A stretch of 64,000 bases of DNA from Patescibacteria group bacterium (GTDB lineage: Bacteria; Patescibacteriota; Microgenomatia; UBA8517). The DNA lies in contig JBBTWD010000016.1 in assembly GCA_038062915.1 (NCBI GenBank), forward strand, positions 27,522 to 91,521. The letters are read 5' to 3'. This document shows positions 1 through 34,380 of the stretch, in pieces. The translations under genes and the position numbers were made by a program. The notes beneath the pieces are model-generated. The model was not told the origin of the DNA and searched no databases. It worked only from the letters and a program-made list of their open reading frames with translations. Position 1 is the stretch's first letter, and each line of letters opens with the position of its first letter.

Positions 1-479
1 ATGAAAGCGGTTATTGGTAACAAACTAACCCTTTTTTCTTTTAATATTTTAACTCCAAGAAATATAAATAATGATGTGAATAAAAAGTGAAGTGCGTGTG
101 GATCGGCTTTAATAGCAACTGTCCACAAAGTTGGATTGACCGAAAGAAGAATCCCAAAAGTTATTGCAAGGAATAATTTTTTTGTAAGCTTGAATAGTAA
201 ATAAGAAAAAATATAAATACCCAGACTAACAAATATTGCCGAAAGAAAGTTCATTCTCCAGGCCACTGAATTAAAATGGAATATGGTCAGAAATATTTTA
301 CCAATGACCACATAAGTTGGGTAACCAGTAGGGTGGCCGATATCGAATGTGTAAGGGATGGTTTGAAATTCACCTGTGTCCCAAAATCCCACACCAGGCA
401 ATAAAGTTTTCAAATAAATCGCGAGAGGTAGTATGAAGGCAAGTATTAAAAACTTACCCATCCGAATTTGTTTATCCAT
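1..479 (-). CDS. GT-C fold membrane glycosyltransferase (DUF2723/protein O-mannosyltransferase-like), N-terminal part; runs off window start
   Basis: Minus-strand ORF starting ATG at 477-479 (MDKQIRMGKFLILAFILPLAIYLKTLLPGVGFWDTGEFQTIPYTFDIGHPTGYPTYVV...), open to position 1. The D.GE...GHPPGYP signature is typical of DUF2723 GT-C enzymes. Not in the ORF track because it is truncated by the window edge. Confidence 0.5.
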   Translation of the reverse strand, partial: MDKQIRMGKFLILAFILPLAIYLKTLLPGVGFWDTGEFQTIPYTFDIGHPTGYPTYVVIGKIFLTIFHFNSVAWRMNFLSAIFVSLGIYIFSYLLFKLTKKLFLAITFGILLSVNPTLWTVAIKADPHALHFLFTSLFIFLGVKILKEKRVSLLPITAF

Positions 480-1591
480 ATAACTCCCCAGAGGTTAACA
501 ACTACTCCAATAAAAAGTAGTATCCAATGATATTTTTTCAAACCCACTTTCTCGATGCCTTTAATGGTCAAAAGTGTCAAGAATGGATAAAAATCGACTG
601 CATACCTATAACCAAACTGGGTCCAACCTGTTCCACCTCTTAATGCAACTAGTATAAAGATCAAAATGACGGCTAGCCACAGCATCTTTGTGAGATTTTC
701 TTTAATTGGTGACCAAAACGCAAAAATGAAAACCGGGGTAGTTATCCAAATGGCAAGTCCGTACCACGAGGGTTGAATATATGGTGGGTGATTAAAAAAG
801 TTAGGAAGTTTTAGGAAGAGTATTTTTAAATGTTCTGGAATATAGGCGATATTTAGCATACCCTTAGAAAACCAGGGTTCAGAATAAATCCCAGGTATTA
901 GGAAGTATCCCTTATCTAAAACTGTCCCAAATCTTATAAAATTGTAGTAAAAATTAAACAATACAAAAGGAAGAATACCCAGTCCTAGATAAAAATATTT
1001 TTTAAACCAATCCTTATTAGCTAGTAGGTACAAAAACAAAGGAAGGGATAAAATTGTATGTAGACGTGATAAAAATGCGCTACCCAAAAAGATTCCAATG
1101 AGAAAAGAACGCCTTTTATTTAAACTTTCGTAAAGTGCAGCTGTAGTCAAAAAAGCGGCACTAACTTGCCCCAAATACCAAACCGAACCGGTTGCGGAAA
1201 GATACCAGACAATGCTTCCAAAGCCAATCATTATTCCAAAAAAAATAGCTAGTGGATAACTCTTTTTAAGTTTGTAAGAAATGGCCATTGTTAAAATAAT
1301 AATTCCAGCTCCCAAAATATGCGCTAGATATTGTTGTTCAAAGTTTTTTCCGAAGAAATAGACAAAAGGAAATGATAAAATTGCTGGCATAGGCGGCTGG
1401 ATTACATAGAACCTGCCTCCTGGCCCGGGAACCAGTTCAGATAACCAGTGGGGATTTTCACTTAGGTAGTATTTACCCTGCAGAAACGAACTGGAAAGTC
1501 GGGTAAAATAATCGTAAGGGGTTTTTCCTGCGGAAGTTAAATAATAAACAATGAGAGAAAAGACAAAAGCTAAAATAAAAAGTTTTTTCAT
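446..1591 (-). CDS. polytopic membrane protein, divergent paralog of the downstream GT-C glycosyltransferase
   Basis: 381 aa with many TM segments. N-terminus (MKKLFILAFVFSLIVYYLTSAGKTP) parallels the downstream gene N-terminus (MGKFLILAFILPLAIYLKTLLPGVGF) but lacks the D.GE/GHPxGYP signature. Confidence 0.45.
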   Translation of the reverse strand: MKKLFILAFVFSLIVYYLTSAGKTPYDYFTRLSSSFLQGKYYLSENPHWLSELVPGPGGRFYVIQPPMPAILSFPFVYFFGKNFEQQYLAHILGAGIIILTMAISYKLKKSYPLAIFFGIMIGFGSIVWYLSATGSVWYLGQVSAAFLTTAALYESLNKRRSFLIGIFLGSAFLSRLHTILSLPLFLYLLANKDWFKKYFYLGLGILPFVLFNFYYNFIRFGTVLDKGYFLIPGIYSEPWFSKGMLNIAYIPEHLKILFLKLPNFFNHPPYIQPSWYGLAIWITTPVFIFAFWSPIKENLTKMLWLAVILIFILVALRGGTGWTQFGYRYAVDFYPFLTLLTIKGIEKVGLKKYHWILLFIGVVVNLWGVIWINKFGWVSF

Positions 1592-3950
1592 ACATCCTAT
1601 TTTATACGTTTTATTCTTAGGATTAATAGTTAGACTTATTCTTTCGAATTTTGGAACCCTTCATCTTGATCAAGGGACTTTTACGGCGTGGAGCCGAATT
1701 CTTGCCGACGGAGGACTTAAGACTTTTTACAACGGTTGGAGTGACTACCTCCCGGGGTATTTATATGTTCTCTGGTTTTTGGGAAAAATAAATTTGCTGA
1801 ACATATTACCTCAAGTTGTTCTTTATAAACTTCCAGCAATTTTTGCCGACATATTTACTGGATACTTGATATATAAAATAGTCGGTAGAAAGTTTGGGAC
1901 ATTGGGTGCAAGTTTGTATATTTTTAATCCGGCAATTTTTGCCAATTCGACACTTTGGGGCCAAGTCGATTCGTTTACTATCCTATTTTCTTTGTTAGCT
2001 ATTTATTTACTACCCATACACTATCCGCTATCCGCCATTGCCTTGTCCGTAGGTACTCTTATTAAACCTCAAGCCGCATTCATAGCTCCACTTATCTTGA
2101 TAATGATGATTAGACACAAGTTTTCTCTAGCAAAAGTTTTAGCATTTATCTTTTTAGCATTTAGTATTTTTGTTCTCGCCTTTGTTCCTTTTTGGAACCA
2201 TGGAAATTTATTTGAGTTTATTTTTGGCCGTTTGACGGTCTCTGCAAATCAATATCCTTACACTGCCGTTAACGCATTTAATTTCTGGGGTCTTTTTGGT
2301 CAGTGGAAGCCAGATAATTTATATTTTCAATTTGGGGGTTATTTAATATTTTTGATCTCGTTTATTATTTTTGCAAAAAAAATAAAATCACAATATCTGC
2401 TTGCTGCCTTTTCTTTTTTGTTTTCTTTTTTGTTTTTTACTAGAATGCACGAAAGACACCTCCTCCCTGTTTTTGCCCCTTTGACAATACTTACAGCTAC
2501 CGAATCACTATACCTAATACCACTAGTTGGTCTCTCTTTTGCTTATATTTTAAATCTTCTCTACTCATATAGATGGATAACCAGTGATTTCTTGGTTTCA
2601 TTTGAGCCGTTTCCCGTAATAATTTTGAGTCTTGTTTCTTTCTTAATGCTCTTGTTTATTTCCCTGAAAACCAAAAATGTAAAAATACTGATTAATTCCC
2701 TGGTTAAATTCTTTAACAAAGGCAGGAAAGTTGTCCCCGAGAAGTTCCCCAAGTTTGCCATTCTACGTTCTACATCCTACTTGTTACTGTCCGTCATTCT
2801 TCTTTTTTCTTTTATATCACGAGTATATAAATTAAGTGAACCACCAAAAGATTATTTTGATGAGATTTATCACGCCTTCACCGCCCGTCTTGTTTTGCAT
2901 AATGACCCCAAGGCCTGGGAATGGTGGAATCCACATCCGGAAGGTTTTGCCTATGAGTGGACCCACCCGCCGCTTTCTAAATTAATGATGGCGGGGAGCA
3001 TGAAGATTCTTGGTGAAAATGCTTTTGGCTGGAGATTCCCGCAGGCGATTTTTGGAACGCTATCAATATTCATGATTTACCTTCTTTCCAAGAAAATATT
3101 TAACGACGAAATAATCAGTCTTTTATCCACGTTTATTTTCTCATTAGATGGGCTTTTTTTAGTGCTATCAAGAATGGCCATGAATGACGTCTATGTTTTA
3201 TTCTTCATGCTTTTAACGATTTATCTTTTTTTGAAAGAAAAAGATTTTTGGTCGGCGATTTCTTTGGGTCTTGCAATTGCTTCAAAATGGTCAGCCATTT
3301 GGGTAATTCCGATTTTATTTATCTTGTGGTTAAAACGTAAAAACAAATTCAAGCTTTCGACATTCTTGTTTTTTGGTCTATTACCTATTACTTGTTACAT
3401 ATTAACTTACCTACCTATGTTTTTAACCGGTCATGACTTGGGAACCTGGTGGGGGATGCAGAAACAGATGTGGTGGTACCATACTGGCCTACGTGCGACT
3501 CATCCATATACATCTGCCTGGTGGAGCTGGCCACTAATGACCCGGCCTGTTTACCTTTACACAAGCGATGAGGTGGGTGGCTTTGTCAGCAGAATCTATG
3601 CGATAGGAAACCCGCTTGTTTTTTGGTTTGGTTTAGTATCTATTTTTATGTCTTCAGTTTTTGCATATATTGAGCGAAATAGAAAACTTGGCTTAGTCGT
3701 GTTTGCATATTTAATCTTTTTTGTTCCGTGGGCAATCTCGCCTAGAATAATGTTTCTATATCATTATTTACCATCAATACCATTTTTGGCGATAGCCACG
3801 GGTTACATTCTTCGTCGAAACCCCAAGCTTGCTACATACTACATTCTACTTGCTACTGTTTTATTTGTTTACTTCTACCCTCACTGGGCAGGACTACAAA
3901 TTCCTCTTTGGCTAGACAAATCCTACTATTGGATGGAAAGCTGGAGATAA
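1551..3950 (+). CDS. large two-module GT-C membrane glycosyltransferase (PMT/GT39-like C-terminal module)
   Basis: 799 aa with about 20 predicted TM segments. The second half carries DEIYHAFTARL...WWNPHPEGFAYEWTHPPL, resembling the DE-motif loop of GT39/PMT mannosyltransferases. The first half is a separate GT-C-like module. Confidence 0.5.
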   Translation: MREKTKAKIKSFFIHPILYVLFLGLIVRLILSNFGTLHLDQGTFTAWSRILADGGLKTFYNGWSDYLPGYLYVLWFLGKINLLNILPQVVLYKLPAIFADIFTGYLIYKIVGRKFGTLGASLYIFNPAIFANSTLWGQVDSFTILFSLLAIYLLPIHYPLSAIALSVGTLIKPQAAFIAPLILIMMIRHKFSLAKVLAFIFLAFSIFVLAFVPFWNHGNLFEFIFGRLTVSANQYPYTAVNAFNFWGLFGQWKPDNLYFQFGGYLIFLISFIIFAKKIKSQYLLAAFSFLFSFLFFTRMHERHLLPVFAPLTILTATESLYLIPLVGLSFAYILNLLYSYRWITSDFLVSFEPFPVIILSLVSFLMLLFISLKTKNVKILINSLVKFFNKGRKVVPEKFPKFAILRSTSYLLLSVILLFSFISRVYKLSEPPKDYFDEIYHAFTARLVLHNDPKAWEWWNPHPEGFAYEWTHPPLSKLMMAGSMKILGENAFGWRFPQAIFGTLSIFMIYLLSKKIFNDEIISLLSTFIFSLDGLFLVLSRMAMNDVYVLFFMLLTIYLFLKEKDFWSAISLGLAIASKWSAIWVIPILFILWLKRKNKFKLSTFLFFGLLPITCYILTYLPMFLTGHDLGTWWGMQKQMWWYHTGLRATHPYTSAWWSWPLMTRPVYLYTSDEVGGFVSRIYAIGNPLVFWFGLVSIFMSSVFAYIERNRKLGLVVFAYLIFFVPWAISPRIMFLYHYLPSIPFLAIATGYILRRNPKLATYYILLATVLFVYFYPHWAGLQIPLWLDKSYYWMESWR

Positions 3951-3956
3951 GTTACC

Positions 3957-4361
3957 TTATTTTTCGCACTTGAGGATTCTGTCCCATCTTTTACATTGCT
4001 GATTGGTGAAACACCTCTTAAATCGTGTGGAGCATGAACCCCCTCCACAGGGATTATCCGCGTCACACTTGGTATGATTTCCGCCGCCACCCCCTCCGTC
4101 ATCGCTGGGTTCATAGCAACAAACAAGATCGCCTACACTACAGTCATCCGTCCTCCTTTTTTTATCTGGATGTCTACACTCAGGTTCAGACACACAATCG
4201 CCTCGTAATTGCAAACAAGTATCCCCCGCTGCTTTTTCTCGGATGTCTTGGGACTGCTTGACCAGAAGTACGCCGGCGACGATGGCGCCGACCAAAAAAA
4301 TAAGACTAACCAACTGCCAGGGCTTTTTATTTTCCCTTTTTCCTTTAAAAATTCTAAACAT
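3957..4361 (-). CDS. small membrane-anchored cysteine-rich extracytoplasmic protein
   Basis: 134 aa. N-terminal TM anchor, a poly-Gly stretch, and 15+ Cys in C..C spacing (CDADNPCGGGSCSTRFKRCFTNQQCKRW). Confidence 0.4.
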   Translation of the reverse strand: MFRIFKGKRENKKPWQLVSLIFLVGAIVAGVLLVKQSQDIREKAAGDTCLQLRGDCVSEPECRHPDKKRRTDDCSVGDLVCCYEPSDDGGGGGGNHTKCDADNPCGGGSCSTRFKRCFTNQQCKRWDRILKCEK

Positions 4362-4391
4362 GCTTACGTATAAACGCTATTACAAATTAAA

Positions 4392-4931
4392 TTAAATTGC
4401 AAGTAGCAGTGAGCCCATTATGACGAGTATTCCAAGTCCTGCTCCAAATACTGTTGGCCAGCTGGTTCCAGAGTTTGGAAGAGATGGCTGTGTTGGTGTT
4501 TGGGCCGAGGCACCAGCACATGTACAGTCAGTTTCTGCTACACACGAGGCGTTTCGGCAGAATCCCTGGTAGCAAATAAGATCACTCCCGCAGTTACTAT
4601 TGCTCCCACATGTTCCTCCGCAGGAATTTGGAGTACCGGGAGGTGAAGTTGGGGATTCAGTTGGCGTTGATGTTGCGGTACTGGTTGCCGTAGAAGTGGC
4701 GGTCGATGTTGCGGTTGCCGTGGCTGTAGCTGTAGCTGTTGATGTCGCACCAATCGTAAATGACAATGAGCAATTATTTGTTTCTGCAGCCCTTGGTTTA
4801 CTAGATGGTACATTTGGAGCCACCGGCTGTGCTCTCAATTGGTAAAGCCTGATAGCGGTAAAAATAGCAACTCCAGCTAGAACTAGAGTTATGATTATTA
4901 TTATTCCGGTTACAAATTTAGATTTTTTCAT
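4392..4931 (-). CDS. membrane-anchored protein with Thr/Ser/Ala-rich repeat linker and Cys-rich knot-like domain; C-terminal LPNSG + hydrophobic tail
   Basis: 179 aa. N-terminal TM, TATATATATSTATSTATSTATSTPTESPTSPP linker, CGGTCGSNSNCGSDLICYQGFCRNASC, and a C-terminus of SLPNSGTSW + 20 hydrophobic residues. Confidence 0.45.
   Translation of the reverse strand: MKKSKFVTGIIIIITLVLAGVAIFTAIRLYQLRAQPVAPNVPSSKPRAAETNNCSLSFTIGATSTATATATATATSTATSTATSTATSTPTESPTSPPGTPNSCGGTCGSNSNCGSDLICYQGFCRNASCVAETDCTCAGASAQTPTQPSLPNSGTSWPTVFGAGLGILVIMGSLLLAI
4660..4760 (-). repeat. short in-frame tandem codon repeats (GCxACx units) encoding the (T-A/S-T-A) linker
   Basis: Plus-strand gcggtNgccgtNgNtgtagctgt periodicity is visible directly. 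Confidence 0.7.
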
Positions 4932-4932
4932 A

Positions 4933-5796
4933 TTATTTCCATTGATTTAATATTTTAACTTGTGCTGAAATGTTAAATGTTGTTGTTCCTGCCGGAATTG
5001 TATAAAGATCACAAAATTCATTCTTGCCCCCGCCCGGCCTTTTACCTATCGTTTCCGGCCTTGTGGTTCCATTAACAGTGAACCTTGCGGCTGTAAATTG
5101 AACTCGATCTTGTGCTGGGGTAGTAGTTCCAGTTGCACAGAAATTAACTTGGTTATTAGCTTTGAGGCTAGAAAGCTGAGCTACACTTAGTTGCGTCCAT
5201 GTTGGAGAATAGGCTTTAATATTTTGACAACTAGCGGTGGGAGTGCCATCACCATCATTTACAACACATCTACCACACTTGTCACCAGAAAGAGGTATCC
5301 ATTTACATTTATCTGCCTTTTCTATAGTACATTCCCGTTCGGCAGTTGCGCAGTCTGTTGCCCCAGATTCAGAACAAGTTTCTTCGTATGCTTTTTCTGA
5401 AACACTTTGTTTTTGTTGGGTCAAGATTACTCCTCCGGCGATGCCGCCAATTAATAAAAATAATCCCAATATTGTTGCGATGATTTTTCCTCCGCCGAAT
5501 TTTTTCTTTGGTGGTGGGGAAACCATCATTGAGGACACGTCGTCTAGTGGTGCAGCTGTTCCACCACTTTCACTGGCGATTGGAGACTGGAGATTGGAGA
5601 CTGGCTGCGAGTCTTCAGTTGGCATAGATGAAATATCTGAAGTATCTGCCATTTGAAAGTCAGGGACAGTTATAACTGGATTATCGTCAACTGGGGGAAC
5701 TACCGGAGTTTGAACCGGATCTGTTTGAGTTGGGTCCAACTTCGCTGAAGCTCCGCTGGATAAATCAGATTGATTGGGCATGTTTATAGGTAACAA
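4933..5796 (-). CDS. bitopic protein: Pro/Ser-rich disordered N-terminal region, single TM, Cys-rich extracytoplasmic domain
   Basis: 287 aa. KKKFGGGKIIATILGLFLLIGGIAGGVIL TM at about residue 110. 14 Cys in the C-terminal half. Internal 12-bp tandem repeat (gattggagactg x2) at 5561-5590. Confidence 0.4.
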   Translation of the reverse strand: MLPINMPNQSDLSSGASAKLDPTQTDPVQTPVVPPVDDNPVITVPDFQMADTSDISSMPTEDSQPVSNLQSPIASESGGTAAPLDDVSSMMVSPPPKKKFGGGKIIATILGLFLLIGGIAGGVILTQQKQSVSEKAYEETCSESGATDCATAERECTIEKADKCKWIPLSGDKCGRCVVNDGDGTPTASCQNIKAYSPTWTQLSVAQLSSLKANNQVNFCATGTTTPAQDRVQFTAARFTVNGTTRPETIGKRPGGGKNEFCDLYTIPAGTTTFNISAQVKILNQWK

Positions 5797-7075
5797 AAGA
5801 CAGCGCCATAACGCCTATACCCAGAATAGAGAAAAGAATGGTCGGAGTCAAGTTACCAGTTTGAGGAATAGGCGCTGGGCTTGCAGTTACTTTTGGACTA
5901 GACGTTGGTTTAGCATTTGACGAGGCGGTGGGAGTTGGGGTTGCAGTTGTGGTCTCTCCAGAACCAGATGCCTCAAAGGCCGGAGCTTCACCCGCTTGAA
6001 CAACAAAATTTCTAGTTAGTTTTCTGGTTATTCCGGTTATATCTTTCCAGGAAATAGTAATTTTATGAACTCCAGGACTTAAATTTTCCGGTGGATTCCA
6101 ATTCCAAGATCCGGCAGTGCCAATAGTGACGGATGCTGTTATGGGATTTTCAGACTCGACAGTTATTGTTAATATAGTTCCTTTTGGCCCGTCACCAAAA
6201 AATTCTGGTTCGGTGCTAGTTACCACCTCTCCATCATCTAAACTCTCAAGGGTTACACTTTGAGCTGGTCCAGAAACGGGGACATTGTCGGCTACGGCGA
6301 ACTTGGATTTTTCTTCTGAATTTTCAGGAAGATCGACTTCGGCATTAGGTGTTCCTCCAGATGTTGATATTGGAAGGCTTCGAAAATCATGTGTTTGCCC
6401 AAGTACCATGGGTGGGGCGGGTTTAGCAGATTGTGGAAAAATTTGAGCGGTTGAAACATCCCCAGTTCCTGTCTCCACAAAAATTTCAACTAAGGTTTGC
6501 GCCTCGTTGATTTCTAGCAAGTTTTTTAAATCTTGAGTTCTTGTAGCCCCTAACTGAAAAACATAATTGCCGGTAGGAGAGGTTAATGTTGAGAGTATAT
6601 ATCCTTGAATATTTGCATAAACTAAGGCATTTTTGATTGTTTCCCCAGTTGAACTTATTACCGATCCTGATATAAGCACAGAATTTTCGCTAACATTTAA
6701 AGCAGATCCTGTTTTTGTTTTCCAGGGAATCCCATTGTTGTCAAACAGTATTCCTCCTGAATTTATTTTATAGGAGTATTCAGTTTCAGCCTTAAGATCG
6801 TTTAGTGCCACACTGTGAGTGAAAGACTTTTTGCTATCTTGAACCAATTTGTTTTGACCCCAAAGCACAAACCCGACAGACTCCTTGTCTGTAACCCAAG
6901 AGATTGTCAGACTAGTATCTGAAATATTAGAAACCCGTATATTTTTAGGCATTGCCTCTCCGGATGCTCCTAATCTAAAAATAGCTCTCGAATTAACTAA
7001 TATAACTCCAAAAAGTGTTCCAACAATTAAAACTATTAGTCCGAGTATTGTTGGAAGTTTATTTTTTTTAATCAT
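5765..7075 (-). CDS. surface protein with N-terminal signal-anchor, fibronectin type III-like domain, Ig-like/beta-sandwich region, Thr/Pro/Ser-rich stalk and C-terminal IPQTG sorting-signal-like motif
   Basis: The ORF track starts at a TTG at 7093, but the ATG at 7075-7073 (MIKKNKLPTILGLIVLIVG) is the likely start. IRVSNISDTSLTISWVT...YSYKI resembles FN3. The C-terminus is PIPQTGN-LTPTILFSILGIGVMALSFV-TYKHAQSI (motif + TM + basic tail). Confidence 0.5.
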   Translation of the reverse strand: MIKKNKLPTILGLIVLIVGTLFGVILVNSRAIFRLGASGEAMPKNIRVSNISDTSLTISWVTDKESVGFVLWGQNKLVQDSKKSFTHSVALNDLKAETEYSYKINSGGILFDNNGIPWKTKTGSALNVSENSVLISGSVISSTGETIKNALVYANIQGYILSTLTSPTGNYVFQLGATRTQDLKNLLEINEAQTLVEIFVETGTGDVSTAQIFPQSAKPAPPMVLGQTHDFRSLPISTSGGTPNAEVDLPENSEEKSKFAVADNVPVSGPAQSVTLESLDDGEVVTSTEPEFFGDGPKGTILTITVESENPITASVTIGTAGSWNWNPPENLSPGVHKITISWKDITGITRKLTRNFVVQAGEAPAFEASGSGETTTATPTPTASSNAKPTSSPKVTASPAPIPQTGNLTPTILFSILGIGVMALSFVTYKHAQSI

Positions 7076-7140
7076 AAGCGTAGCTTGTGACAAACTTTGT
7101 TTATCATAAGCGTAGCTTGTGACAAACTTTGTTTATCATG
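7071..7140. repeat. perfect 32-bp tandem direct repeat x2 plus 6-bp partial third copy
   Basis: atcataagcgtagcttgtgacaaactttgttt occurs at 7071-7102 and 7103-7134, then atcatg. The first copy overlaps the ATG (read on minus strand) of the FN3 gene. Confidence 0.9.
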
Positions 7141-7145
7141 AAATG

Positions 7146-7340
7146 TTACTCATTTCTATTTTGAATATCTCTAATAATATCTTGATCTAGGAATGGCACC
7201 AATGGTTTTGAGATTTCATCAGGTACCACCAAAGATGGTTTTACGACAACTGCTCGGTAAACGCTTAAAGATATCCACATAATTGCAGTTAGGGTTGTCA
7301 AAATTAAAATTGTAACAATGTTAGGAATTTTGTTTTTCAC
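7146..7340 (-). CDS. small single-TM protein (pilus-assembly associated?)
   Basis: 64 aa. N-terminal TM. Positioned between the pilO-like gene and the FN3 gene in the same operon. Confidence 0.3.
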   Translation of the reverse strand: MKNKIPNIVTILILTTLTAIMWISLSVYRAVVVKPSLVVPDEISKPLVPFLDQDIIRDIQNRNE

Positions 7341-7990
7341 TGGATAAACGGTAACCTGCCTGAAATTATAGCTACAATAATATTTCCACTTTCGGACGTA
7401 GTTGTATTAATTCCAAAGGCATCAATTTTTATCGGACGGCGCAAGTTTTCTAAGTCGCGGGCTGTAGAAATTATTCCCTGATAATTTCCACTAATACTAA
7501 TTGAAACAGTCATTTCTTTTGATCCTGTAGATAATGGTTTTAAACCAGCTTCCTTCTTCTTGGCCTGATCATCTTTTCCCAAAAGTATTATTTCTCCTAC
7601 AGATACACCCAAGACTTGAACGGCGTTTTTGCTTGCGACAGCTTGTATCTGCCCAACAAAAATTTCTGGCTGTGGTTGATTGGGGACGGCCAGGTCTACC
7701 AGTGGAATAACCCCTGAATTTTCAGAATAAAGACTGCTTGCGGTATCTAGATTTGCAATTTTCTGATCAAGTAAAGAAATAGTTTTTTCTTTCTCATTGA
7801 CTTCTTTAACCAAGGAGATAATGGTCAGGGCGGTAGGTTTTAGGGCAAATAAACCAAATATGGTTATTGTAATTAGGGAAAGAATAACTTCCAAAAACAT
7901 CTTGAGGTCACGGCGCTGTTTGTAAAGCACCACGACATTTAAAAAATACTCTTTGTACCGTAAATATTGTCCTCGCCATCCAAGTGCCAT
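7337..7990 (-). CDS. pilO: PilO-like type IV pilus assembly protein
   Basis: 217 aa. Basic N-terminus, one TM, coiled-coil, then a globular domain. Immediately follows the PilN-like gene with a 1-bp gap. Confidence 0.4.
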   Translation of the reverse strand: MALGWRGQYLRYKEYFLNVVVLYKQRRDLKMFLEVILSLITITIFGLFALKPTALTIISLVKEVNEKEKTISLLDQKIANLDTASSLYSENSGVIPLVDLAVPNQPQPEIFVGQIQAVASKNAVQVLGVSVGEIILLGKDDQAKKKEAGLKPLSTGSKEMTVSISISGNYQGIISTARDLENLRRPIKIDAFGINTTTSESGNIIVAIISGRLPFIQ

Positions 7991-7991
7991 A

Positions 7992-8531
7992 TTATTTTAT
8001 TAAAAGCTTGATATTAAAGACTGTTAGTGACGGATTATTTTCTGATGAATTTAGTTGACCGAGAGATATGTCTTTAAATGCGGCATCGGCGTTTAGATTG
8101 GAAATAAATTGAGCAATTCCCATTTCACTTCCAGCAACTCCTTTGATTTGGGCTGAAGTTTCCTGAAATGATATCGACTGAAGGCTAACCTCACCGGGTA
8201 CCTTGGCAACGATTTTAGCTATAGTATCGGAAGGTTTTTTCTCTTTTGATAGATCTTTAAAAATTTGGAGTTTTGCTTGTAAAGTTCTAAAACTTTTTTC
8301 AAAATCACTTTGGGCTTTTATTTGGGCAGTCTTAATTTGTAGTTGATCGTTTAGATCAGAGTTTTGAGCATCTAACCAAAATCGGGAAAGAAATGCTCCC
8401 ATAACTACCATTTCGGTGATTATTACAATATACCTAAAAGATGTCATTGCCCAACGAAGCAATCTCCCTAGCGTTGAAGCCTCAAATTCTTCTTGAGGAA
8501 GTAGATTGATTAACTTTTTTTTGGTAGCCAT
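7992..8531 (-). CDS. pilN: PilN-like type IV pilus assembly protein
   Basis: 179 aa. N-terminal INLLP signature (MATKKKLINLLPQEEF), single TM, coiled-coil. Confidence 0.55.
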   Translation of the reverse strand: MATKKKLINLLPQEEFEASTLGRLLRWAMTSFRYIVIITEMVVMGAFLSRFWLDAQNSDLNDQLQIKTAQIKAQSDFEKSFRTLQAKLQIFKDLSKEKKPSDTIAKIVAKVPGEVSLQSISFQETSAQIKGVAGSEMGIAQFISNLNADAAFKDISLGQLNSSENNPSLTVFNIKLLIK

Positions 8532-8546
8532 GCTACTTTCAATATA

Positions 8547-8795
8547 CTATTTTGATTTTGTTTTTGGAAGAAGCTTTGACAAAGCGCTTTTAATCCTGGC
8601 GGATTTATTTTTGTGGATAACTTTCTTTTTTGTGGCCCTGTCAGCCAATGAAGTTGCTTTGAATATCGAGTCTAGACTCTTAAGTTTTCTAGCTTTTCTT
8701 AAGGCCACTTCAAGCTTTGAAATGATAATTTTATTAACACTAGTTTTTTTATGGGAGCTTCTCAAGGCTCTTTTGGCTGTTTTAGTAACCGGCAT
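8547..8795 (-). CDS. rpsT: 30S ribosomal protein S20
   Basis: MPVTKTAKRALRSSHKKTSVNK... internal Met of the 95-aa ORF is the conserved bS20 start. Confidence 0.75.
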   Translation of the reverse strand: MPVTKTAKRALRSSHKKTSVNKIIISKLEVALRKARKLKSLDSIFKATSLADRATKKKVIHKNKSARIKSALSKLLPKTKSK

Positions 8796-8814
8796 CCCAA
8801 TAGTATAATCGACC

Positions 8815-10476
8815 TTGATAATGAAATCAATCAAAAACCTATTTAATTCACAACAAAAGACTGTTCTTTCCGCCGCGACAATTATTATGTTTATGGTTGT
8901 TGCCAGTCGAATCCTGGGTCTTGTTCGTCAAAGAGTTTTGGCAAGTTTTTTTACGCCAGATGAACTTTCACTTTTCTTTGCCGCGTTTCGCTTACCCGAT
9001 TTGGTTTTTGAGGTATTAGTTTTTGGGACCTTTTCAGCCGCATTTATCCCAGTTTTTACAGGACTTATCAAAAAAAACAAAAATGAGGCTTGGAAGGTGG
9101 CTACAACAGTTGTCAATATTGGATTTTTAGTTTTTTTAATTTTGGCAGGATTTTTAATCTTTTTTTCATCTCATCTTTATGGTGTTTTAGCTCCTGGATT
9201 CACAAATGGACAACAAGTAACAATAGTAAGGCTTACTAGAATTCTGTTTGCGGCCCAAGGCTTTTTTGTTATTAGTTACGTTTTAACTGCAGTTTTAGAA
9301 TCATCACGGCGTTTTTTAATTCCTGCGGTCGCTCCACTTTTTTATAACCTAGGAATCATTTTTGGTACACTAATTTTTGCTCCCAAGTTTCATCTTATGG
9401 CCCCAGTCATCGGGGTTATAGTGGGCTCTGCTCTGCATCTTTTAATTCAACTCCCCCTTTCTTTAAAACTTGGTTTCAGATTTAGGTCAAAAATTTCCAT
9501 TGATGATAATGTAAGAAAAATTGGAAGACTTGCACTCCCCAGAATTATTGAAGTTTCAGTGATTCAGGTTATGAAAACGGTCGAGCTTTTTTTGGCTTCA
9601 TTAATTTCAACTGCTTCATATACTTATTTTACTCTAGGCAACACCATTCAACTTATTCCAGTTGGACTTTTTGGGACATCGATAGCCAAAGCATCTCTAC
9701 CCACACTATCAAGACAGGTGGGCCAGCCAGGCGTTTTCAGGAAAACACTTTTTGATGCTCTATATCAGATGGTTTTTTTAATTTTGCCAGTTTCGGCCAC
9801 ATTGATAGTTTTAAGAATCCCCATAGTAAGGCTTATTTTTGGGACAGATATGTTTGATTGGGAAGCAACGGTCCAAACCGGAATGGTTGTTTCGGCATTC
9901 GCCGTTGGAGTTATCTTCCAAGCTGGTGCAAGTCTACTTTCAAGGGCATTTTATGCCATGCACGATACAAAGACTCCCGTTATTATTTCTATAATCTCAT
10001 TAATTATTAATATTAGCTTGGCATTTATTTTTGTCAAAGTTTTTAGTCTTCCCTCTTGGTCTCTGGCACTTGCCTACTCTATCGGAGTTTTTATACAAGG
10101 CGCCACTCTTTTTATAGTAATCAATAATCGTCTTAAAAATGGTCCGATTTGGAAACTTCTTTCCCCACTTTTTAAATCAGTATTTTCATCCGTAGTTTCA
10201 GGTGTCGTGATGTATTTTATGCTCAAGTTTTTTGATAGATGGGTTTGGATAAAAAATTCGCCGGCCAATCTTCCTTTTGAGAGGTTTGTTTTGGATACAA
10301 GATATGCCGGAAACCTTTTGGCATTAACCATGTTGGTAATTTTATCGGGCGCCTTGGCTTACTTTTTAACTTCTTATTTACTAAAATCTCAAGAATTAAC
10401 TAATTTTTTAAACTTGTTTAAACGATTTTTTATTTCAAGAAAAATAGAACCCATTTCAGACCTTGACAAGGGTTAG
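8815..10476 (+). CDS. murJ: lipid II flippase MurJ (MviN)
   Basis: 553 aa with 14 TM segments. ILGLVRQRVLASFFT N-terminal motif. Confidence 0.8.
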   Translation: MIMKSIKNLFNSQQKTVLSAATIIMFMVVASRILGLVRQRVLASFFTPDELSLFFAAFRLPDLVFEVLVFGTFSAAFIPVFTGLIKKNKNEAWKVATTVVNIGFLVFLILAGFLIFFSSHLYGVLAPGFTNGQQVTIVRLTRILFAAQGFFVISYVLTAVLESSRRFLIPAVAPLFYNLGIIFGTLIFAPKFHLMAPVIGVIVGSALHLLIQLPLSLKLGFRFRSKISIDDNVRKIGRLALPRIIEVSVIQVMKTVELFLASLISTASYTYFTLGNTIQLIPVGLFGTSIAKASLPTLSRQVGQPGVFRKTLFDALYQMVFLILPVSATLIVLRIPIVRLIFGTDMFDWEATVQTGMVVSAFAVGVIFQAGASLLSRAFYAMHDTKTPVIISIISLIINISLAFIFVKVFSLPSWSLALAYSIGVFIQGATLFIVINNRLKNGPIWKLLSPLFKSVFSSVVSGVVMYFMLKFFDRWVWIKNSPANLPFERFVLDTRYAGNLLALTMLVILSGALAYFLTSYLLKSQELTNFLNLFKRFFISRKIEPISDLDKG

Positions 10477-10491
10477 CACTCGAGATAAGAT
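10463..10491 (+). promoter_or_regulatory. sigma70-like promoter (TTGACA-17-TAAGAT) for hrcA operon
   Basis: TTGACA at 10463-10468 and TAAGAT at 10486-10491. Overlaps CIRCE. Confidence 0.45.
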
Positions 10492-10499
10492 ACTGCTAA
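10473..10499 (+). promoter_or_regulatory. CIRCE operator (HrcA binding site)
   Basis: TTAGCACTC-gagataaga-TACTGCTAA versus consensus TTAGCACTC-N9-GAGTGCTAA. Lies 3 nt upstream of the hrcA ATG. Confidence 0.75.
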
Positions 10500-10501
10500 C
10501 T

Positions 10502-11242
10502 ATGGCTGAAGGATTAACCGCAAGGCAAACACGAGTCTTAAAAGCTATTATCGACGAGTATATTGAAACTGCCGATGCGGTTGGCTCCGAGGCTCTCGAT
10601 AAAAAATATAATTTAGGGGTTTCTCCGGCTACGATCAGAAATGAGATGGTTTCTTTGACAAAATCTAATTATCTTAAACAACTACATACATCTGCGGGTC
10701 GCGTCCCCACCCCAACCGCGATGAAATTTTACATCGATCAACTAATGGAGGAAAAAGAGATGAGTTTGGTCGATGAAGTTAAAGCAAAAGAGGATGTTTG
10801 GGATTCTAGGGCAGACTTAAAGGATCTAATGGAGGAGGCAACACATGCTTTGTCTGATGCCACCCAAAGCCTGTCTGTTTCTGCGCTCCAAGAAGGAGCA
10901 AGTAATAGGTTTTGGCATTCAGGCTACTCCCATCTTTTTGAGAACCCAGAATTTTCAGATATACAGGCTTGTGCAAATATATTTTCATTACTTGAACAAG
11001 GAGAAAAAATGCAAAAGCTTTTTTTTGAGATTTCAGAACCCACCTCTCCTTTAGATATTTTATTTGGAGAAGAATTAGGCTGGCCGGAGTTGACGCCAGC
11101 TGGTATTATTGCGACACATTTTAATGTTCGAGGAAAACCCGCCATGCTTGCTATAATCGGACCATCAAGGGTTTCTTATTCGACACTGATCCCAGTTGTT
11201 AAATATTTTAAGGGATTAATTGAGGAGGTAGCATCAGCATGA
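10502..11242 (+). CDS. hrcA: heat-inducible transcription repressor HrcA (short form)
   Basis: MAEGLTARQTRVLKAIIDEYIETADAVGSEAL...SPATIRNEM. First gene of the hrcA-grpE-dnaK order. Confidence 0.75.
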   Translation: MAEGLTARQTRVLKAIIDEYIETADAVGSEALDKKYNLGVSPATIRNEMVSLTKSNYLKQLHTSAGRVPTPTAMKFYIDQLMEEKEMSLVDEVKAKEDVWDSRADLKDLMEEATHALSDATQSLSVSALQEGASNRFWHSGYSHLFENPEFSDIQACANIFSLLEQGEKMQKLFFEISEPTSPLDILFGEELGWPELTPAGIIATHFNVRGKPAMLAIIGPSRVSYSTLIPVVKYFKGLIEEVASA

Positions 11243-21448: not shown

Positions 21449-22498
21449 ATGTTTAATCCTAAATTTGCCATTACCAACAAACTCCTTTCAAATATTAAAG
21501 AAATAGGATCAATTATCACCGAACTTAACAATAGGAAATTTTCTAACCTAGTTCTGGTGGAAATGGAAAGGCTTGCTCGCGAAATCTCTTCGCATGCCTC
21601 AACTAGTATTGAAGGTAATCCACTACCATTAACCGATGTTAAACGACTGATTAAAACTGACCCGAAAAATATTCGTGATAGTGAAAAAGAAGTCCTAAAT
21701 TATAATAACGTCTTAAAACAAATAAACAAAAATCTTAAAAACAATAACATTCATTTTTCCCTAGATTTGATCTTAAAGATACAAAAAGGAGTTGTTGATG
21801 ATCTGCTACCAGATTACGACACAGGGGTGTTACGAAAGCGGCCAGTGTTTGTAAATAACCCGTCATTAAGAAAGGTAGTTTATCTACCTCCAGATCATTC
21901 TAATGTCCCCCTATTAATAGATGAACTGATTATGTTTATAAAAAGCAAGAGTGATGAAATAGACCCAATAATATTGGCGGGAATATTTCATAAACAATTT
22001 GTTTTAATCCATCCGTTTATAGATGGAAATGGAAGAACGACAAGACTACTCACAAAGATTTTACTTGCGGAAATGGGTCTGAATACTTTTAATTTGTTTA
22101 GTTTTGAAAATTATTACAATAAAAATGTAACAAGATATTTTGAATTTGTTGGAGAAATTGGTAATTACTATGAATTAAGTAAAAATGTTGATTTTACGAA
22201 GTGGCTTGAATATTTTACCGATGGAATTATTGATGAACTTTTAAGGGTTAAAAAGATACTTAGTATTCAAGTTGATCCTAAAAATGTAGTTTATAGTCAT
22301 GACCAAAAGGTGTTGGATTTTGTTGAAAAAAACGGATTTATTAAAAATAGTGATTACGCCAAGTTAATTAAGCGCTCAAAAGCTATGCGAGTAATCAATC
22401 TTAATAGACTAATTGAAATGGGTTTAATTGAGCGGAAAGGAAAAGGTAAGGCAACTTTTTATGTTTTAAAAAAGACTTTGGGAGATAAATTTCACTAA
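21449..22498 (+). CDS. Fic/DOC family protein (AMPylation-type active site) with C-terminal winged-helix region
   Basis: HPFIDGNGRTTR matches the Fic motif HxFx(D/E)GNGRxxR. 349 aa. Confidence 0.8.
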   Translation: MFNPKFAITNKLLSNIKEIGSIITELNNRKFSNLVLVEMERLAREISSHASTSIEGNPLPLTDVKRLIKTDPKNIRDSEKEVLNYNNVLKQINKNLKNNNIHFSLDLILKIQKGVVDDLLPDYDTGVLRKRPVFVNNPSLRKVVYLPPDHSNVPLLIDELIMFIKSKSDEIDPIILAGIFHKQFVLIHPFIDGNGRTTRLLTKILLAEMGLNTFNLFSFENYYNKNVTRYFEFVGEIGNYYELSKNVDFTKWLEYFTDGIIDELLRVKKILSIQVDPKNVVYSHDQKVLDFVEKNGFIKNSDYAKLIKRSKAMRVINLNRLIEMGLIERKGKGKATFYVLKKTLGDKFH

Positions 22499-26877: not shown

Positions 26878-28983
26878 TTGCCTATGGCTAAGAATCATCA
26901 CAGAAGAAGACTTGATAAAAGAGGGTTTAAGTTAAAACTTAAAAGAGATACTGTCTTTTCTATTGTTCAGATTTTTTTCTTTGCCCTCGCCGGACTAGTT
27001 TTAATTTCCTTTTCCAGAACGGGCGCAATTTTGATGCGCTTCAACGATCTTTTAATCGCTTATTTCTCCTGGTCGGCAATTTTTTTACCTTTTGTTTTTC
27101 TTTCATTTGCATTTTTAATATCGAAAATAAAACTTATTATTGGTCAACCTAATGTAATAGTCGGATCACTTCTTTTTTTTCTTTCAATAATGGCAATTGG
27201 GCGCGCAGGTATATTGGGTCACGGAGCGTGGGAAGCTATTAGTATATTGATTACTGGGGTCGGAGCAGGAATTGTTTTAGCAGGAACTGCCCTAATTGGT
27301 TTAATTGTGCTTTTTAATACTTCAATTGATCAGGTGTTTAGGGTTGTCGCCAATATCATTTTAACCATCCGAGGCTATACTTTTGGAAACACCGATATTA
27401 AAATTGGAGGATCTCTTTCAAAAGGTCCTTTAAAAGTTTCCGGTGGTGGAATGGCCAAATCCCAAGTTGCCAATATGCCAAAAGAACCATTGGAACAAAA
27501 ACTTGTTAGTAATATACCTGGAGAAGAAAAAGTTTGGCACTACCCATCAATTGATTTGTTGGGCGAGGAAGAGGTGGGTAAGGCGGACCGAGGGGATATT
27601 AAGGGGAATGCCGCAATTATTGAAAAAACCCTTGAATCGTTTGGAATTACTGCCCACGTTGTTGAGGTTAATCTGGGTCCCGCCGTTACTCAATATGCTA
27701 TTGAGCTTGCTCATGGCACCAAGCTTTCTAAGATTACATCTTTGGAGCGTGATTTAGCACTAGCCCTTTCGGCTCCAACTGGGACAATTAGAATTGAAGC
27801 CCCGATTCCTGGAAGAAATTTGGTGGGAATAGAACTCCCCAATAGGAATGCAGAATTTGTACCGCTTAGAAAAATGATTGAAAGTGAAGCTATGTCTGGC
27901 AACCGCTCAAGATTAGCAGTTGCTTTGGGATTAGATGTTTCTGGTAGGGCAATTGTTGCCGATGTTTCTAAGATGCCACATATATTAATTGCTGGTCAAA
28001 CCGGATCTGGAAAGTCGATTTGTATCAACGCCTTTTTAGCATCGATTCTTTTTAGAGCTAGTCCATCTGAAGTTAAAATGATAATGGTCGACCCTAAACG
28101 AGTCGAGCTTACCCATTACAATGGCATTCCACATCTTCTTTCCCCTGTTATAGTAGAACCGAAAGAAGTTATCTCGGCTCTTCGTTGGATTTTAGCCGAA
28201 ATGGATAGGCGTTATAAACTTTTTGCTGAAGCGGGGGCCAGAAACATCGATAGTTACAATGAGATGTCAGGATTTCAAGCTCTTCCCTACATTTTATTAT
28301 TCATAGATGAACTCGCTGATATTATGCTTTTTTCTCCTGTTGAGGTTGAAGATGCGATTACCAGAATTGCTCAAATGAGTAGGGCTACTGGGATTCATAT
28401 GGTTCTAGCTACCCAAAGGCCATCAGTTGACGTTATAACTGGTCTTATCAAAGCCAATATTCCCTCTAGAATCGCTTTTGCAGTTGCGTCTCAAGTTGAT
28501 TCCCGGGTAATTCTCGATACTCAAGGAGCTGAAAAACTACTTGGAAAAGGGGATATGCTTTACCTTCCCCCGGAACAGGCAAAGCCAATGAGAATTCAAG
28601 GAGCTTTTGTTAATGACAAAGAAATTAACGCACTCGTATCTTTTATTAAAAATCAAGGTGTAACACCACAATATACACAGGAGGTTATAACCATGCAAAA
28701 GGCTGGGACGATTACGGTTTCAGGGATAAGTGGGGAGATTGATGATTTTTTCAAAGATGCCATTCGAGTCGTTTGCCAATATGAGAGAGCTAGCGCGTCA
28801 CTTCTCCAGAGAAGGCTGTCGATCGGATATGCAAGAGCTGCAAGAATTATGGATCAACTTGAAGATGGTGGTGTAATCGCGGCAAGCGATGGCACCAGTA
28901 AACCTCGAGAAGTTTTAGTGAAAAACGCAGAAGAGTTTATAGCAAATTTAGAAGGAAATGAAAACAATCGGCCAAATACTTAA
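26878..28983 (+). CDS. ftsK: DNA translocase FtsK/SpoIIIE
   Basis: N-terminal TM region. Motor domain GQTGSGKS with the gamma domain at the C-terminus. Confidence 0.9.
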   Translation: MPMAKNHHRRRLDKRGFKLKLKRDTVFSIVQIFFFALAGLVLISFSRTGAILMRFNDLLIAYFSWSAIFLPFVFLSFAFLISKIKLIIGQPNVIVGSLLFFLSIMAIGRAGILGHGAWEAISILITGVGAGIVLAGTALIGLIVLFNTSIDQVFRVVANIILTIRGYTFGNTDIKIGGSLSKGPLKVSGGGMAKSQVANMPKEPLEQKLVSNIPGEEKVWHYPSIDLLGEEEVGKADRGDIKGNAAIIEKTLESFGITAHVVEVNLGPAVTQYAIELAHGTKLSKITSLERDLALALSAPTGTIRIEAPIPGRNLVGIELPNRNAEFVPLRKMIESEAMSGNRSRLAVALGLDVSGRAIVADVSKMPHILIAGQTGSGKSICINAFLASILFRASPSEVKMIMVDPKRVELTHYNGIPHLLSPVIVEPKEVISALRWILAEMDRRYKLFAEAGARNIDSYNEMSGFQALPYILLFIDELADIMLFSPVEVEDAITRIAQMSRATGIHMVLATQRPSVDVITGLIKANIPSRIAFAVASQVDSRVILDTQGAEKLLGKGDMLYLPPEQAKPMRIQGAFVNDKEINALVSFIKNQGVTPQYTQEVITMQKAGTITVSGISGEIDDFFKDAIRVVCQYERASASLLQRRLSIGYARAARIMDQLEDGGVIAASDGTSKPREVLVKNAEEFIANLEGNENNRPNT

Positions 28984-29587
28984 AGATGGAAGGCAACGGA
29001 AAAAATACTCCCTTAAAAAACTTGAAGATCTCACGAAGATTAAAAGCGATTTTATAAGCGCAGTTGAAAACGAAGATTGGGGAGTTCTTCCGCCCTTTCC
29101 AACTGTTTTAGGATTTGTTAAAAGTGTCTCGGCGGCGTTGGGCATAGATGAAAAAATCGCAGTTGCCATACTCAAAAGAGATTATCCACCAAAAATAGAA
29201 GCGGTAAATCCAAAACCCGATGTTTCATCAAAATTTGTCTGGAGTCCAAAAATTACATTTGTCGTAGGGGTGGGAGTAGTCACAGCAGCAATATTGGGGT
29301 ATTTAGTCTTTCAATATTCCAGGTTTATTTCACCCCCCAAATTAGATATAGATTCGCCAGTAAATGGGCAAATTATTACAGGTCGTCTTGTGGTAGTTTC
29401 AGGAAAGACAGATTCAGATGCAAAAATTACAGCAAACAATCAAGCCGTACTGGTTAATTCTGATGGAAAGTTTGACACTAATCTTGAGGTTGATCTTGAG
29501 ACGAGGGAGGTTGTTATAAAGTCAATTTCTAGATCTGGTAAAGAAACGGTTATACATCGAACAATAAATGTTCGAGTAAATAACTAA
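28958..29587 (+). CDS. RodZ-like protein: XRE-type HTH, single TM, extracytoplasmic C-terminal domain
   Basis: N-terminal HTH (SLKKLEDLTKIKSDFISAVENEDWGVLP), TM at about residue 95, then a beta-rich C-terminal domain. Confidence 0.45.
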   Translation: MKTIGQILKDGRQRKKYSLKKLEDLTKIKSDFISAVENEDWGVLPPFPTVLGFVKSVSAALGIDEKIAVAILKRDYPPKIEAVNPKPDVSSKFVWSPKITFVVGVGVVTAAILGYLVFQYSRFISPPKLDIDSPVNGQIITGRLVVVSGKTDSDAKITANNQAVLVNSDGKFDTNLEVDLETREVVIKSISRSGKETVIHRTINVRVNN

Positions 29588-33691: not shown

Positions 33692-34380
33692 CTCAAAAAA
33701 TAATTCTTCGAATAGCAGCAGCAGTATCAGGGATATCTGGAACAATCATCCTAATTGGAGTGTTTTATCCAATTGTTTCATATAATAATACCTATTCTCA
33801 AAAATATCCAAATTTAATTTCACCCATCTCCGAAAAAAAACCAGTTAATATTGAAGAAGTAGATTATACCCAGGCAAGCAATTGGTTTACAGGAGGAGCA
33901 AAAAAAGAAGATTTTATTTCGAGTAAGGTTGAATATTACACGATTTCTATTCCAAAATTGAAGATCGAAAATGCAACAGTTGCCATAGGGGGGAATGATT
34001 TAAGTCAACACATTATTCAATATCCCGGGACAGCCCTACCCGGGAAGCGTGGTAACTCTGTCCTTTTTGGTCATTCGATCTTGCCCATTTTTTATAACCC
34101 TAAAGATTATCTATCGATTTTTTCTCTTTTACCGAGTTTAAAAATAGGAAACGAAATTTTTATTGAATATGACGGTGTTTCATATAAATACAGAGTTGAG
34201 AATATGTTCGAAGTTTTGCCTACCGATATTCAAGTTTTGGAGCAGGATGATTCTGATTCATTTTTATCTCTTGTAACCTGTGTTCCTCCGGGTGACCCCA
34301 GGAAACCAAAAAGGCTAATAGTCAGGGCAAGGGTGGTTCCACCAGAAGAACTTACATACAATGAAAATTCTAGCAATTGA
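33688..34380 (+). CDS. sortase family transpeptidase
   Basis: N-terminal TM anchor. His in VLFGHS, Cys in SLVTCVPPG (TLxTC-type) and a downstream conserved Arg (RLIVRARV). Confidence 0.6.
   Translation: MTQKIILRIAAAVSGISGTIILIGVFYPIVSYNNTYSQKYPNLISPISEKKPVNIEEVDYTQASNWFTGGAKKEDFISSKVEYYTISIPKLKIENATVAIGGNDLSQHIIQYPGTALPGKRGNSVLFGHSILPIFYNPKDYLSIFSLLPSLKIGNEIFIEYDGVSYKYRVENMFEVLPTDIQVLEQDDSDSFLSLVTCVPPGDPRKPKRLIVRARVVPPEELTYNENSSN

Follow-up and report, generated by a model that had tools for sequence, protein, structure and literature searches.

The window analysed here, a 64-kb stretch (64,000 nucleotides) of contig JBBTWD010000016.1, comes from a Woesebacteria (Microgenomates, Patescibacteria/Candidate Phyla Radiation, CPR) bacterium and encodes a conserved cell-envelope protein with FN3/Ig domains. 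The protein ends in the pentapeptide IPQTG followed by a hydrophobic segment, and its sequence indicates that it is probably a sortase substrate with attachment to peptidoglycan. This C-terminus appears to be one version of a lineage-specific family of signals, in which [L/I/V]-P-x-[T/S/A/V]-G is followed by x-x-[W/L]-P-T and about 19 hydrophobic residues. A second version ends a 179-residue protein encoded in the same operon, and a sortase gene lies on the same contig. The features that define the two C-termini are as follows.

5765..7075, minus strand: FN3/Ig envelope protein gene, 436 residues from the ATG at 7075; a TTG at 7093 could extend the open reading frame (ORF; 5765..7093)
5855..5869, minus strand: codons of the IPQTG pentapeptide, residues 403-407, with the putative sortase cleavage site T406/G407
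5768..5854, minus strand: codons of residues 408-436 (NLTPT, a 17-residue hydrophobic segment, then YKHAQSI), the proposed membrane-retention part of the signal
4392..4931, minus strand: gene of the 179-residue protein, with an N-terminal transmembrane (TM) helix, a T/A/S-rich linker, a Cys-rich module and the second type of signal
4467..4481, minus strand: codons of LPNSG, the sorting-signal pentapeptide of the 179-residue protein
4395..4466, minus strand: codons of TSWPT, the hydrophobic segment and the C-terminus of the 179-residue protein, after LPNSG

The FN3 protein and its C-terminal signal

The FN3 protein is 100% identical to a database protein (P0001) that carries the NCBI name 'Ig-like domain-containing protein [Patescibacteria group bacterium]'. 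This identity and the ORF list confirm the gene, its 436-residue product and the C-terminal sequence as given in an earlier reading made from the DNA letters without database searches (the sequence-only reading). Pfam places an fn3 domain at residues 49-111 (26.4 bits against a cutoff of 25) and a Big_13 domain at residues 289-361 (32.6 bits against 27), with a carboxypeptidase-regulatory-like domain below threshold at residues 141-181. The AlphaFold2 model, with a mean predicted local distance difference test score (pLDDT) of 80, comprises three β-sandwich domains (residues 44-121, 134-231 and 283-359) between an N-terminal helix (7-29) and a disordered linker (366-407) that leads into a C-terminal helix (410-435). 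We compared this model with the PDB using Foldseek. The comparison returned generic tandem Ig/FN3 stalks of adhesins and receptors only (SiiE, MpIBP, contactins), with no functional lead and no match to a pilin-like fold. As modelled, the protein resembles a stalk or an adhesin module rather than an enzyme or a pilin. By eye, helix 7-29 corresponds to a hydrophobic segment of about 20 residues, and the residues F33..G36-A37 that come after it, invariant in an alignment of 45 sequences, could be a signal peptidase site.

The C-terminus reads APIPQTG-NLTPT-ILFSILGIGVMALSFV-TYKHAQSI. The hydrophobic segment ILFSILGIGVMALSFV has a Kyte-Doolittle window mean of 2.4 and falls within the predicted helix 410-435. 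We examined the 120 best homologues of the FN3 protein, which share 48-71% identity with it and are all 410-470 residues long; 117 of them end in xPx[T/S]G. Within these 117, Pro and Gly are present throughout, the first position is V in 67, I in 27 and L in 11, and the fourth is T in 101 and S in 16. The Gly is followed by x-L-T-P-T in 100 sequences, and 26-32 residues separate it from an end of the form W/Y-K-x-A/S-E-N; 98 sequences have one K or R in this tail. In the 45-sequence alignment, P404 and G407 never vary and L409-T412 scarcely do, and the S/T/P linker that precedes them is hypervariable in length and sequence. Both IPQTG, from RrgB, and VPDTG, from RrgC, are experimentally established sortase motifs of Streptococcus pneumoniae pilins (PMC5640630). 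Peptides such as PAPIPQTGNLTPT and QPSLPNSGTSWPT exemplify the predicted signal and are candidate sortase substrates.

The 179-residue protein carries the second version. All of its 120 database homologues end in L-P-x-[S/A/V/T]-G-x-x-x-P-[T/S], and in each the Gly is followed by exactly 24 residues, none of them K or R. We also compared 48 related loci, each from a GTDB species-representative genome and all of the Woesebacteria/Microgenomates type; orthologues of the 179-residue protein were found at 42 of these loci, and every one has the same ending. The residues S, A, V and T seen at the fourth position are all small or Thr-isosteric, as would be expected of a P1 pocket. The sequence-only reading had taken the SLPNSG ending for a weaker variant; it is in fact the commonest form of the signal.

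One C-terminal module on unrelated proteins

Within the window, the two genes stand alone. A six-frame regular-expression scan of all ORFs of at least 40 residues found the combination of [any]Px[T/S]G and a hydrophobic end in the FN3 and 179-residue genes and nowhere else. We built a 36-position profile from both tail types; in the window it scores 62.5 and 49.8 bits on these two genes, and 4.2 bits on the next best ORF. A search with the same profile of 1.84 billion protein cluster representatives yielded 155 at E<=1e-3. Among the 150 matches listed, 27 belong to the FN3 family, 86 to the 179-residue family and 41 to neither (the counts overlap slightly), and in all but one the match lies at the extreme C-terminus of proteins of up to 1152 residues. 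Fragments excepted, the listed matches outside both families have unrelated N-terminal parts, and they include NHL+FN3, cohesin, DUF11 and further FN3 proteins. One C-terminal module is thus borne by many unrelated extracellular passengers, which is the signature of a protein-sorting signal.

The two tail types can be joined. Of 134 parsed tails, 113 stop exactly 24 residues past the Gly, and in 37 representatives a canonical [L/I/V]PxTG occurs together with the tail-less 24-residue end, which makes the two types versions of one signal. Most carriers thus have the form that ends 24 residues after the Gly without a charged tail, and the FN3 family appears to carry a derived version with a short W/Y-K-x-A-E-N tail. 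When seven tails were compared with NCBIfam at E<=10, the sole sorting-signal domain model matched was TIGR01167 (LPXTG_anchor), over model positions 1-28 of 34, which is all but the charged tail. Two of the seven also weakly matched NF053819, a family of sortase-dependent surface proteins, and none matched a PEP-CTERM, PGF-CTERM or GlyGly-CTERM model.

Some FN3 carriers of the tail, for example P0416 and P0484, have N-termini that resemble classical cleavable signal peptides by eye. P0416, encoded at 10001..11164 of locus L058, is an FN3 protein that combines such an N-terminus with an LPVTG-TGWPT tail. Its gene lies about 4 kb downstream of the ATP synthase operon and is followed by one for a 430-residue protein without known function. 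The 'Pam' pilus operons of CPR bacteria adjoin the ATP synthase genes, and their FnIII anchor protein PamR has a C-terminal TM helix (preprint 10.64898/2026.03.03.709456).

The sortase and the competing explanations

The window contains a single match to sortase profiles.

33688..34380, plus strand: sortase gene, 230 residues (TM helix at the N-terminus, catalytic domain starting near residue 85)
34072..34074, plus strand: codon of catalytic His129
34279..34281, plus strand: codon of catalytic Cys198, in SLVTC
34312..34314, plus strand: codon of catalytic Arg209
31682..33691, plus strand: gene of a 669-residue single-TM protein, which overlaps the sortase start codon by 4 nucleotides

The sortase with Cys, His and Arg that the sequence-only reading had placed here stands. 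The product matches Pfam Sortase (PF04203) with E=4.7e-22 and 78.5 bits against a cutoff of 26.6, and TIGR01076 with 46.8 bits against 39.35. His129, Cys198 and Arg209 are invariant among 37 homologues, in the contexts FGH129S, (T/S)LVTC198 and KR209LIVRAR, and in the class C sortases that match best, the counterpart of Arg209 is the Arg in HRLLVRG, the segment after the catalytic Cys. Mean column identity over the 37 homologues is 72%, above that of the putative substrates. Among solved sequences, the closest belong to class C and class D, with E values of only 6e-8 to 1e-6, and the window protein has no C-terminal TM segment. Its gene occupies a conserved neighbourhood of ftsK, a helix-turn-helix (HTH) protein gene, alaS, the gene of a TM protein of about 700 residues, the sortase gene, ruvX, mltG, rpoB and rpoC. 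Identical sortase genes are present in assembly GCA_964363755.1, and 12 pairs of FN3 and sortase homologues most likely share contigs, to judge by the equal lengths given for their longest contigs (118854, 381131, 684869 and 604421, for example).

The 669-residue protein gene is the conserved upstream neighbour of the sortase gene in other Woesebacteria genomes, and its product could be a partner of the sortase. It has no significant Pfam or NCBIfam family and no solved relative, and a weak Baseplate_J-like match was confined to its extracellular half. Searches of PDB sequences, Pfam and NCBIfam gave no support to a PilM/actin-like assignment of this protein, which was rejected.

A sortase family, fam000526, has been reported as near ubiquitous in Microgenomates, and its presence was read as pointing to an envelope of the Gram-positive-like kind (Meheust et al. 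2019, PMC6744442). Judged by taxon and Pfam domain, the window sortase is very probably a member. That account gives neither substrates nor a signal, to which the present analysis adds candidate substrates, a signal variant and an operon context. A cell wall is to be expected in this organism, since the window also encodes a MurJ-like flippase and a YceG/MltG-like protein.

8815..10476: murJ-like gene, assigned by orthology
35327..36250: YceG/mltG-like gene

The signal shares several properties with the LPXTG signal described by TIGR01167 and PF00746. The second residue of the pentapeptide is Pro and the fifth is Gly, the fourth is T or S in the FN3 family, the hydrophobic segment comes directly after the motif at the extreme C-terminus, and the surface passengers are many and unrelated. 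As in LPXTG systems, a sortase with a His/Cys/Arg triad is encoded in the same genomes. The signal differs from LPXTG in that position 1 of the FN3 family is more often V or I than L, and in the additional conserved x-x-[W/L]-P-T block after the Gly.

Several observations weigh against a sortase substrate. The charged tail is absent from the commoner signal type, that of the 179-residue protein, and weak in the FN3 family, where the net charge of the last 10 residues is zero in 71 of the 117 homologues. The tripartite end described in the sequence-only reading holds for the conserved IPQTG and hydrophobic segment, whereas its 'basic tail' amounts to one Lys and one His (YKHAQSI) in the window protein. 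Position 4 is Val in 26 of the 120 homologues of the 179-residue protein, about one fifth, as in LPVVG, and we know of no natural sortase substrate with Val at this position. The long N-terminal hydrophobic segments of the FN3 and 179-residue proteins, about 20 residues each, may be uncleaved anchors, unlike those of classical substrates. The two kinds of model that the sequence-only reading had proposed as checks, curated sorting-signal models and sortase subclass models, both gave scores below their cutoffs, by a narrow margin in the case of the LPXTG models. Pfam Gram_pos_anchor (PF00746) matches residues 410-436 of the FN3 tail with E=0.03 and 14.7 bits against a cutoff of 20. TIGR01167, with a cutoff of 15.9, gives 13.6 bits for the FN3 tail and 10.6 for that of the 179-residue protein, within a range of 9.4-13.6 for the tails compared. 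No NCBIfam sortase class model (A-F, GN) reaches its cutoff on the window sortase. The best is class C with 48.2 bits against 160, followed by SrtD (44.7 against 140), class D (39.1 against 165), class E (37 against 160), class F (18.6 against 166) and GN (15.8 against 158). Because the sortase fits no defined class, its specificity is not readable from homology. Its AlphaFold2 model, from 37 close homologues, has a mean pLDDT of 49.6, too poor for a fold search or for the binding groove. Finally, in none of the 48 genomes is a sortase gene found within 10 kb of the operon, so gene order provides no direct link to a sortase. The proposal of a sorting signal with a cognate sortase on the contig thus keeps the support of conservation, modularity, the invariant triad, the probable sharing of contigs and the IPQTG precedent, and does not have that of the curated signal models.

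Three other explanations were considered. The C-terminal helix might be a permanent membrane anchor that is never cleaved, with the protein held at one or both ends and the P...G...PT pattern forming a structural turn or cap where the chain meets the membrane, rather than a protease site. The weak or absent charged tail, which classical signals require, would fit such an anchor, as would the missed curated LPXTG models, the tolerance of Val at position 4 and the fact that every operon product is a single-pass membrane protein; a preprint also reads the C-terminal helices of CPR pilus proteins as simple membrane anchors (10.64898/2026.03.03.709456). We nevertheless regard a plain anchor as unlikely, as it leaves unexplained the invariant L/P/G at fixed spacing before the helix on unrelated passengers, the fixed length of 24 residues, the restriction of position 4 to T, S, A or V, and the fact that the nearest curated model is an LPXTG anchor. 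The lineage moreover keeps a sortase with 72% mean column identity, which needs substrates. More improbable still is that another processing enzyme reads the signal and the sortase serves other substrates, in the manner of exosortase/PEP-CTERM, archaeosortase/PGF-CTERM or rhombosortase/GlyGly-CTERM. The commoner form, tail-less with its fixed 24 residues and S, A or V at position 4, does depart from all described sortase signals, and S/T-rich linkers before the signal together with glycosyltransferases resemble archaeal PGF-CTERM glycoproteins. However, no gene resembling an exosortase, archaeosortase or rhombosortase turned up in the window or next to the operon, where the multi-pass neighbours are a PMT mannosyltransferase and a glycosyltransferase-like protein. 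The tails match none of the corresponding C-terminal models, and canonical xPxTG occurs in 37 representatives and in the whole FN3 family.

It is least probable, to the point that we rejected it, that a sortase-polymerised pilus of the Gram-positive type contains the FN3 protein as a subunit, with the window enzyme as its class C pilin polymerase. IPQTG is the motif of the pneumococcal backbone pilin RrgB, V and I are preferred at position 1 as in class C systems, and the best matches of the sortase, among solved structures as among class models, are class C. These matches are weak, with E about 6e-8 for solved structures and less than one third of the class cutoff, and unlike class C enzymes the sortase has no C-terminal membrane segment. 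The single sortase gene of the window sits amid the housekeeping genes alaS, ruvX, mltG and rpoB rather than beside its putative substrates, and none was seen in or near the operon in the 48 genomes. The FN3/Ig-like domains match generic adhesin stalks (SiiE, MpIBP) and not pilins, and no conserved YPKN-like pilin motif is found among the invariant alignment columns. The rejection rests on the lack of an adjacent sortase, of a pilin motif and of a pilin (CnaA/CnaB) fold.

For the FN3 protein as a sortase substrate, which we consider probable, we infer export, cleavage, the identity of the acting enzyme and linkage to the wall as follows. The protein would be exported by the Sec pathway through its N-terminal hydrophobic segment, so as to expose the three β-sandwich domains and an S/T/P-rich stalk, probably O-glycosylated, outside the membrane. 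The C-terminal helix would retain it there. Cys198 of the single housekeeping sortase would then attack the Thr406-Gly407 bond of IPQTG and pass the protein on to a lipid II amino group, leading to a covalent link with peptidoglycan.

The pilN/pilO operon and the CPR cell envelope

The FN3 gene is the fourth of an operon that opens with pilN and a pilO-like gene. The other genes in and around it are listed below.

7992..8531, minus strand: pilN, 179 residues, first gene of the operon, with INLLP at the N-terminus (Pfam PilN, E=2.2e-10, 40.9 bits against a cutoff of 22.8)
7337..7990, minus strand: pilO-like gene, 217 residues (weak Pfam PilO match, E=0.012, 16.1 bits against a cutoff of 22)
7146..7340, minus strand: gene of a small TM protein, 64 residues, N-terminally anchored, between the pilO-like and FN3 genes
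4933..5796, minus strand: gene of a 287-residue protein, probable start ATG at 5781, between the FN3 and 179-residue genes
1551..3950, plus strand: PMT-family protein O-mannosyltransferase gene, 799 residues, convergent with the operon (PMT, PMT_2 and PMT_4TMC above Pfam cutoffs)
446..1591, minus strand: gene of a glycosyltransferase-like multi-pass protein, with a weak LA_3751/LA_3752 match, found in 18 of the 48 genomes

The order rpsT, pilN, pilO-like, small TM, FN3, 287-residue family, 179-residue family and convergent PMT mannosyltransferase is conserved across the 48 loci. The first four operon genes are present at 47-48 loci (pilN at 48, a pilO-like gene after it at 48, the small TM gene at 47), an orthologue of the 287-residue protein directly after the FN3 gene at 41, one of the 179-residue protein at 42 and the PMT gene, in the same position, at 38. 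The sequence-only reading had placed the 179-residue gene next to the FN3 gene; it lies two genes downstream, with the 287-residue gene between them. Median intergenic gaps of -4 to +6 nucleotides indicate that pilN to the 179-residue gene form an operon. The ends of the small TM gene overlap both neighbours (median gap -4 nucleotides), and its product elsewhere reaches about 110 residues with an S/T/P-rich extension. In the 287-residue protein, the N-terminus is rich in Pro and Gln, a TM segment lies in the centre, and a Cys-containing domain is predicted to be extracellular. The protein matches no Pfam or NCBIfam family, and the window copy has no sorting signal. Long S/T/P-rich linkers in the operon proteins, together with the flanking PMT and glycosyltransferase-like genes, make O-glycosylation of these linkers plausible.

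INLLP or a close variant is found at the N-terminus of PilN at all 48 loci, and a faint PilO match is also present in the precomputed annotation of an orthologue of the pilO-like protein. In known systems, the INLLP motif of PilN binds PilM. The operon contains no pilM, pilP, pilQ, ATPase or pilin gene, and a PilM partner must be encoded elsewhere. The operon resembles type IV pilus operons in its pilN/pilO opening and differs from them in what is missing (PilP/PilQ in diderms), and the link to a type IV pilus consists of gene order only. To our knowledge, no known type IV pilus system includes a protein with a sortase signal.

Two further small families were seen at the distal end of the operon. 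In this genome it ends with the gene of a 134-residue, N-terminally anchored, Cys-rich protein (3957..4361, minus strand), weakly similar (E 1e-4 to 9e-9) to part of the 287-residue family in other genomes, which suggests a duplicated Cys-rich module. In about ten genomes, the gene of the 179-residue family is directly followed by that of a family of about 95 residues, absent from the window, with the layout YPFDKF-FPKSG-KWSV, a hydrophobic segment and GGFYLxPA. The long tail after its helix makes it improbable that the FPxSG of this family is a sorting motif.

L014, 13093..13380: member of the family of about 95 residues
L017, 13471..13758: member of the same family
L026, 13310..13597: member of the same family, with about 7 further loci

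The window as a whole has a G+C content of 38.5% and carries the ribosomal-protein and rpoBC clusters of a small genome. A scan of positions 3700..9000 for promoter and terminator consensus sequences gave counts not above those of shuffled controls. Scans of the window for tRNA and Rfam families found no tRNA gene and no Rfam family at the gathering threshold, despite the large ribosomal-protein, rpoBC and tuf clusters. Amid the housekeeping genes, a Fic/DOC-domain protein is encoded at 21449..22498 (plus strand; Pfam Fic, 2.5e-17) and a protein with HTH_25 and Glucodextran_B domains at 28958..29587 (plus strand), the layout of which we take to be RodZ-like. Named homologues of the FN3 protein and of the sortase come from Patescibacteria, Microgenomates and Woesebacteria metagenome-assembled genomes. 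Many GTDB records with the operon (L006, L013, L014, L020, L025 and others) are titled 'uncultured Gammaproteobacteria bacterium' or 'Alphaproteobacteria bacterium', and are evidently mislabelled submissions.

Sortases are mentioned in individual CPR genome papers (PMC7143001, PMC4736985), and 'sortase motifs' on CPR surface proteins have been noted as well (PMC5220378); because of these reports, the general idea is not new. We searched the literature for LPXTG or sortase in Patescibacteria, Microgenomates and Woesebacteria. The papers found mention the enzyme or 'sortase motifs', and nowhere define substrates or the signal. The view of the sequence-only reading that such proteins are poorly documented in CPR thus holds for substrates and signal, and not for the sortase or the 'sortase motifs'. 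In the searched literature we found no description of an extended, mostly tail-less signal with a fixed 24-residue geometry, a relaxed position 4 and carriers in a pilN/pilO operon.

CPR bacteria form a large part of bacterial diversity and their envelopes are almost unstudied. Few envelope enzymes have been reported from nearly all Microgenomates, and for the sortase, which is one of them, we found no description of substrates. As current curated models miss the signal, the surface proteins that bear the tail stay 'hypothetical' in annotation. With the signal as a guide, the surface proteins that are probably anchored to the wall in these organisms could be listed, among them adhesin-like FN3, cohesin and NHL proteins, which may mediate host attachment. 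A sortase of unusual specificity could also be tried in protein ligation. The conserved place of the carriers after pilN and pilO suggests a link between pilus machinery and cell wall. It is a speculative and rather doubtful extension that the FN3 and 179-residue proteins are wall-linked parts of a Woesebacteria type IV pilus platform, tying PilN and PilO to peptidoglycan. If so, and if the N-terminal anchors are kept, the two proteins would tether the membrane platform to the cell wall and act as a functional stand-in for PilP/PilQ in an envelope without an outer membrane, and a divergent sortase class would read a CPR-specific tail-less signal through the extended LPx[T/S/A/V]G-xxWPT motif.

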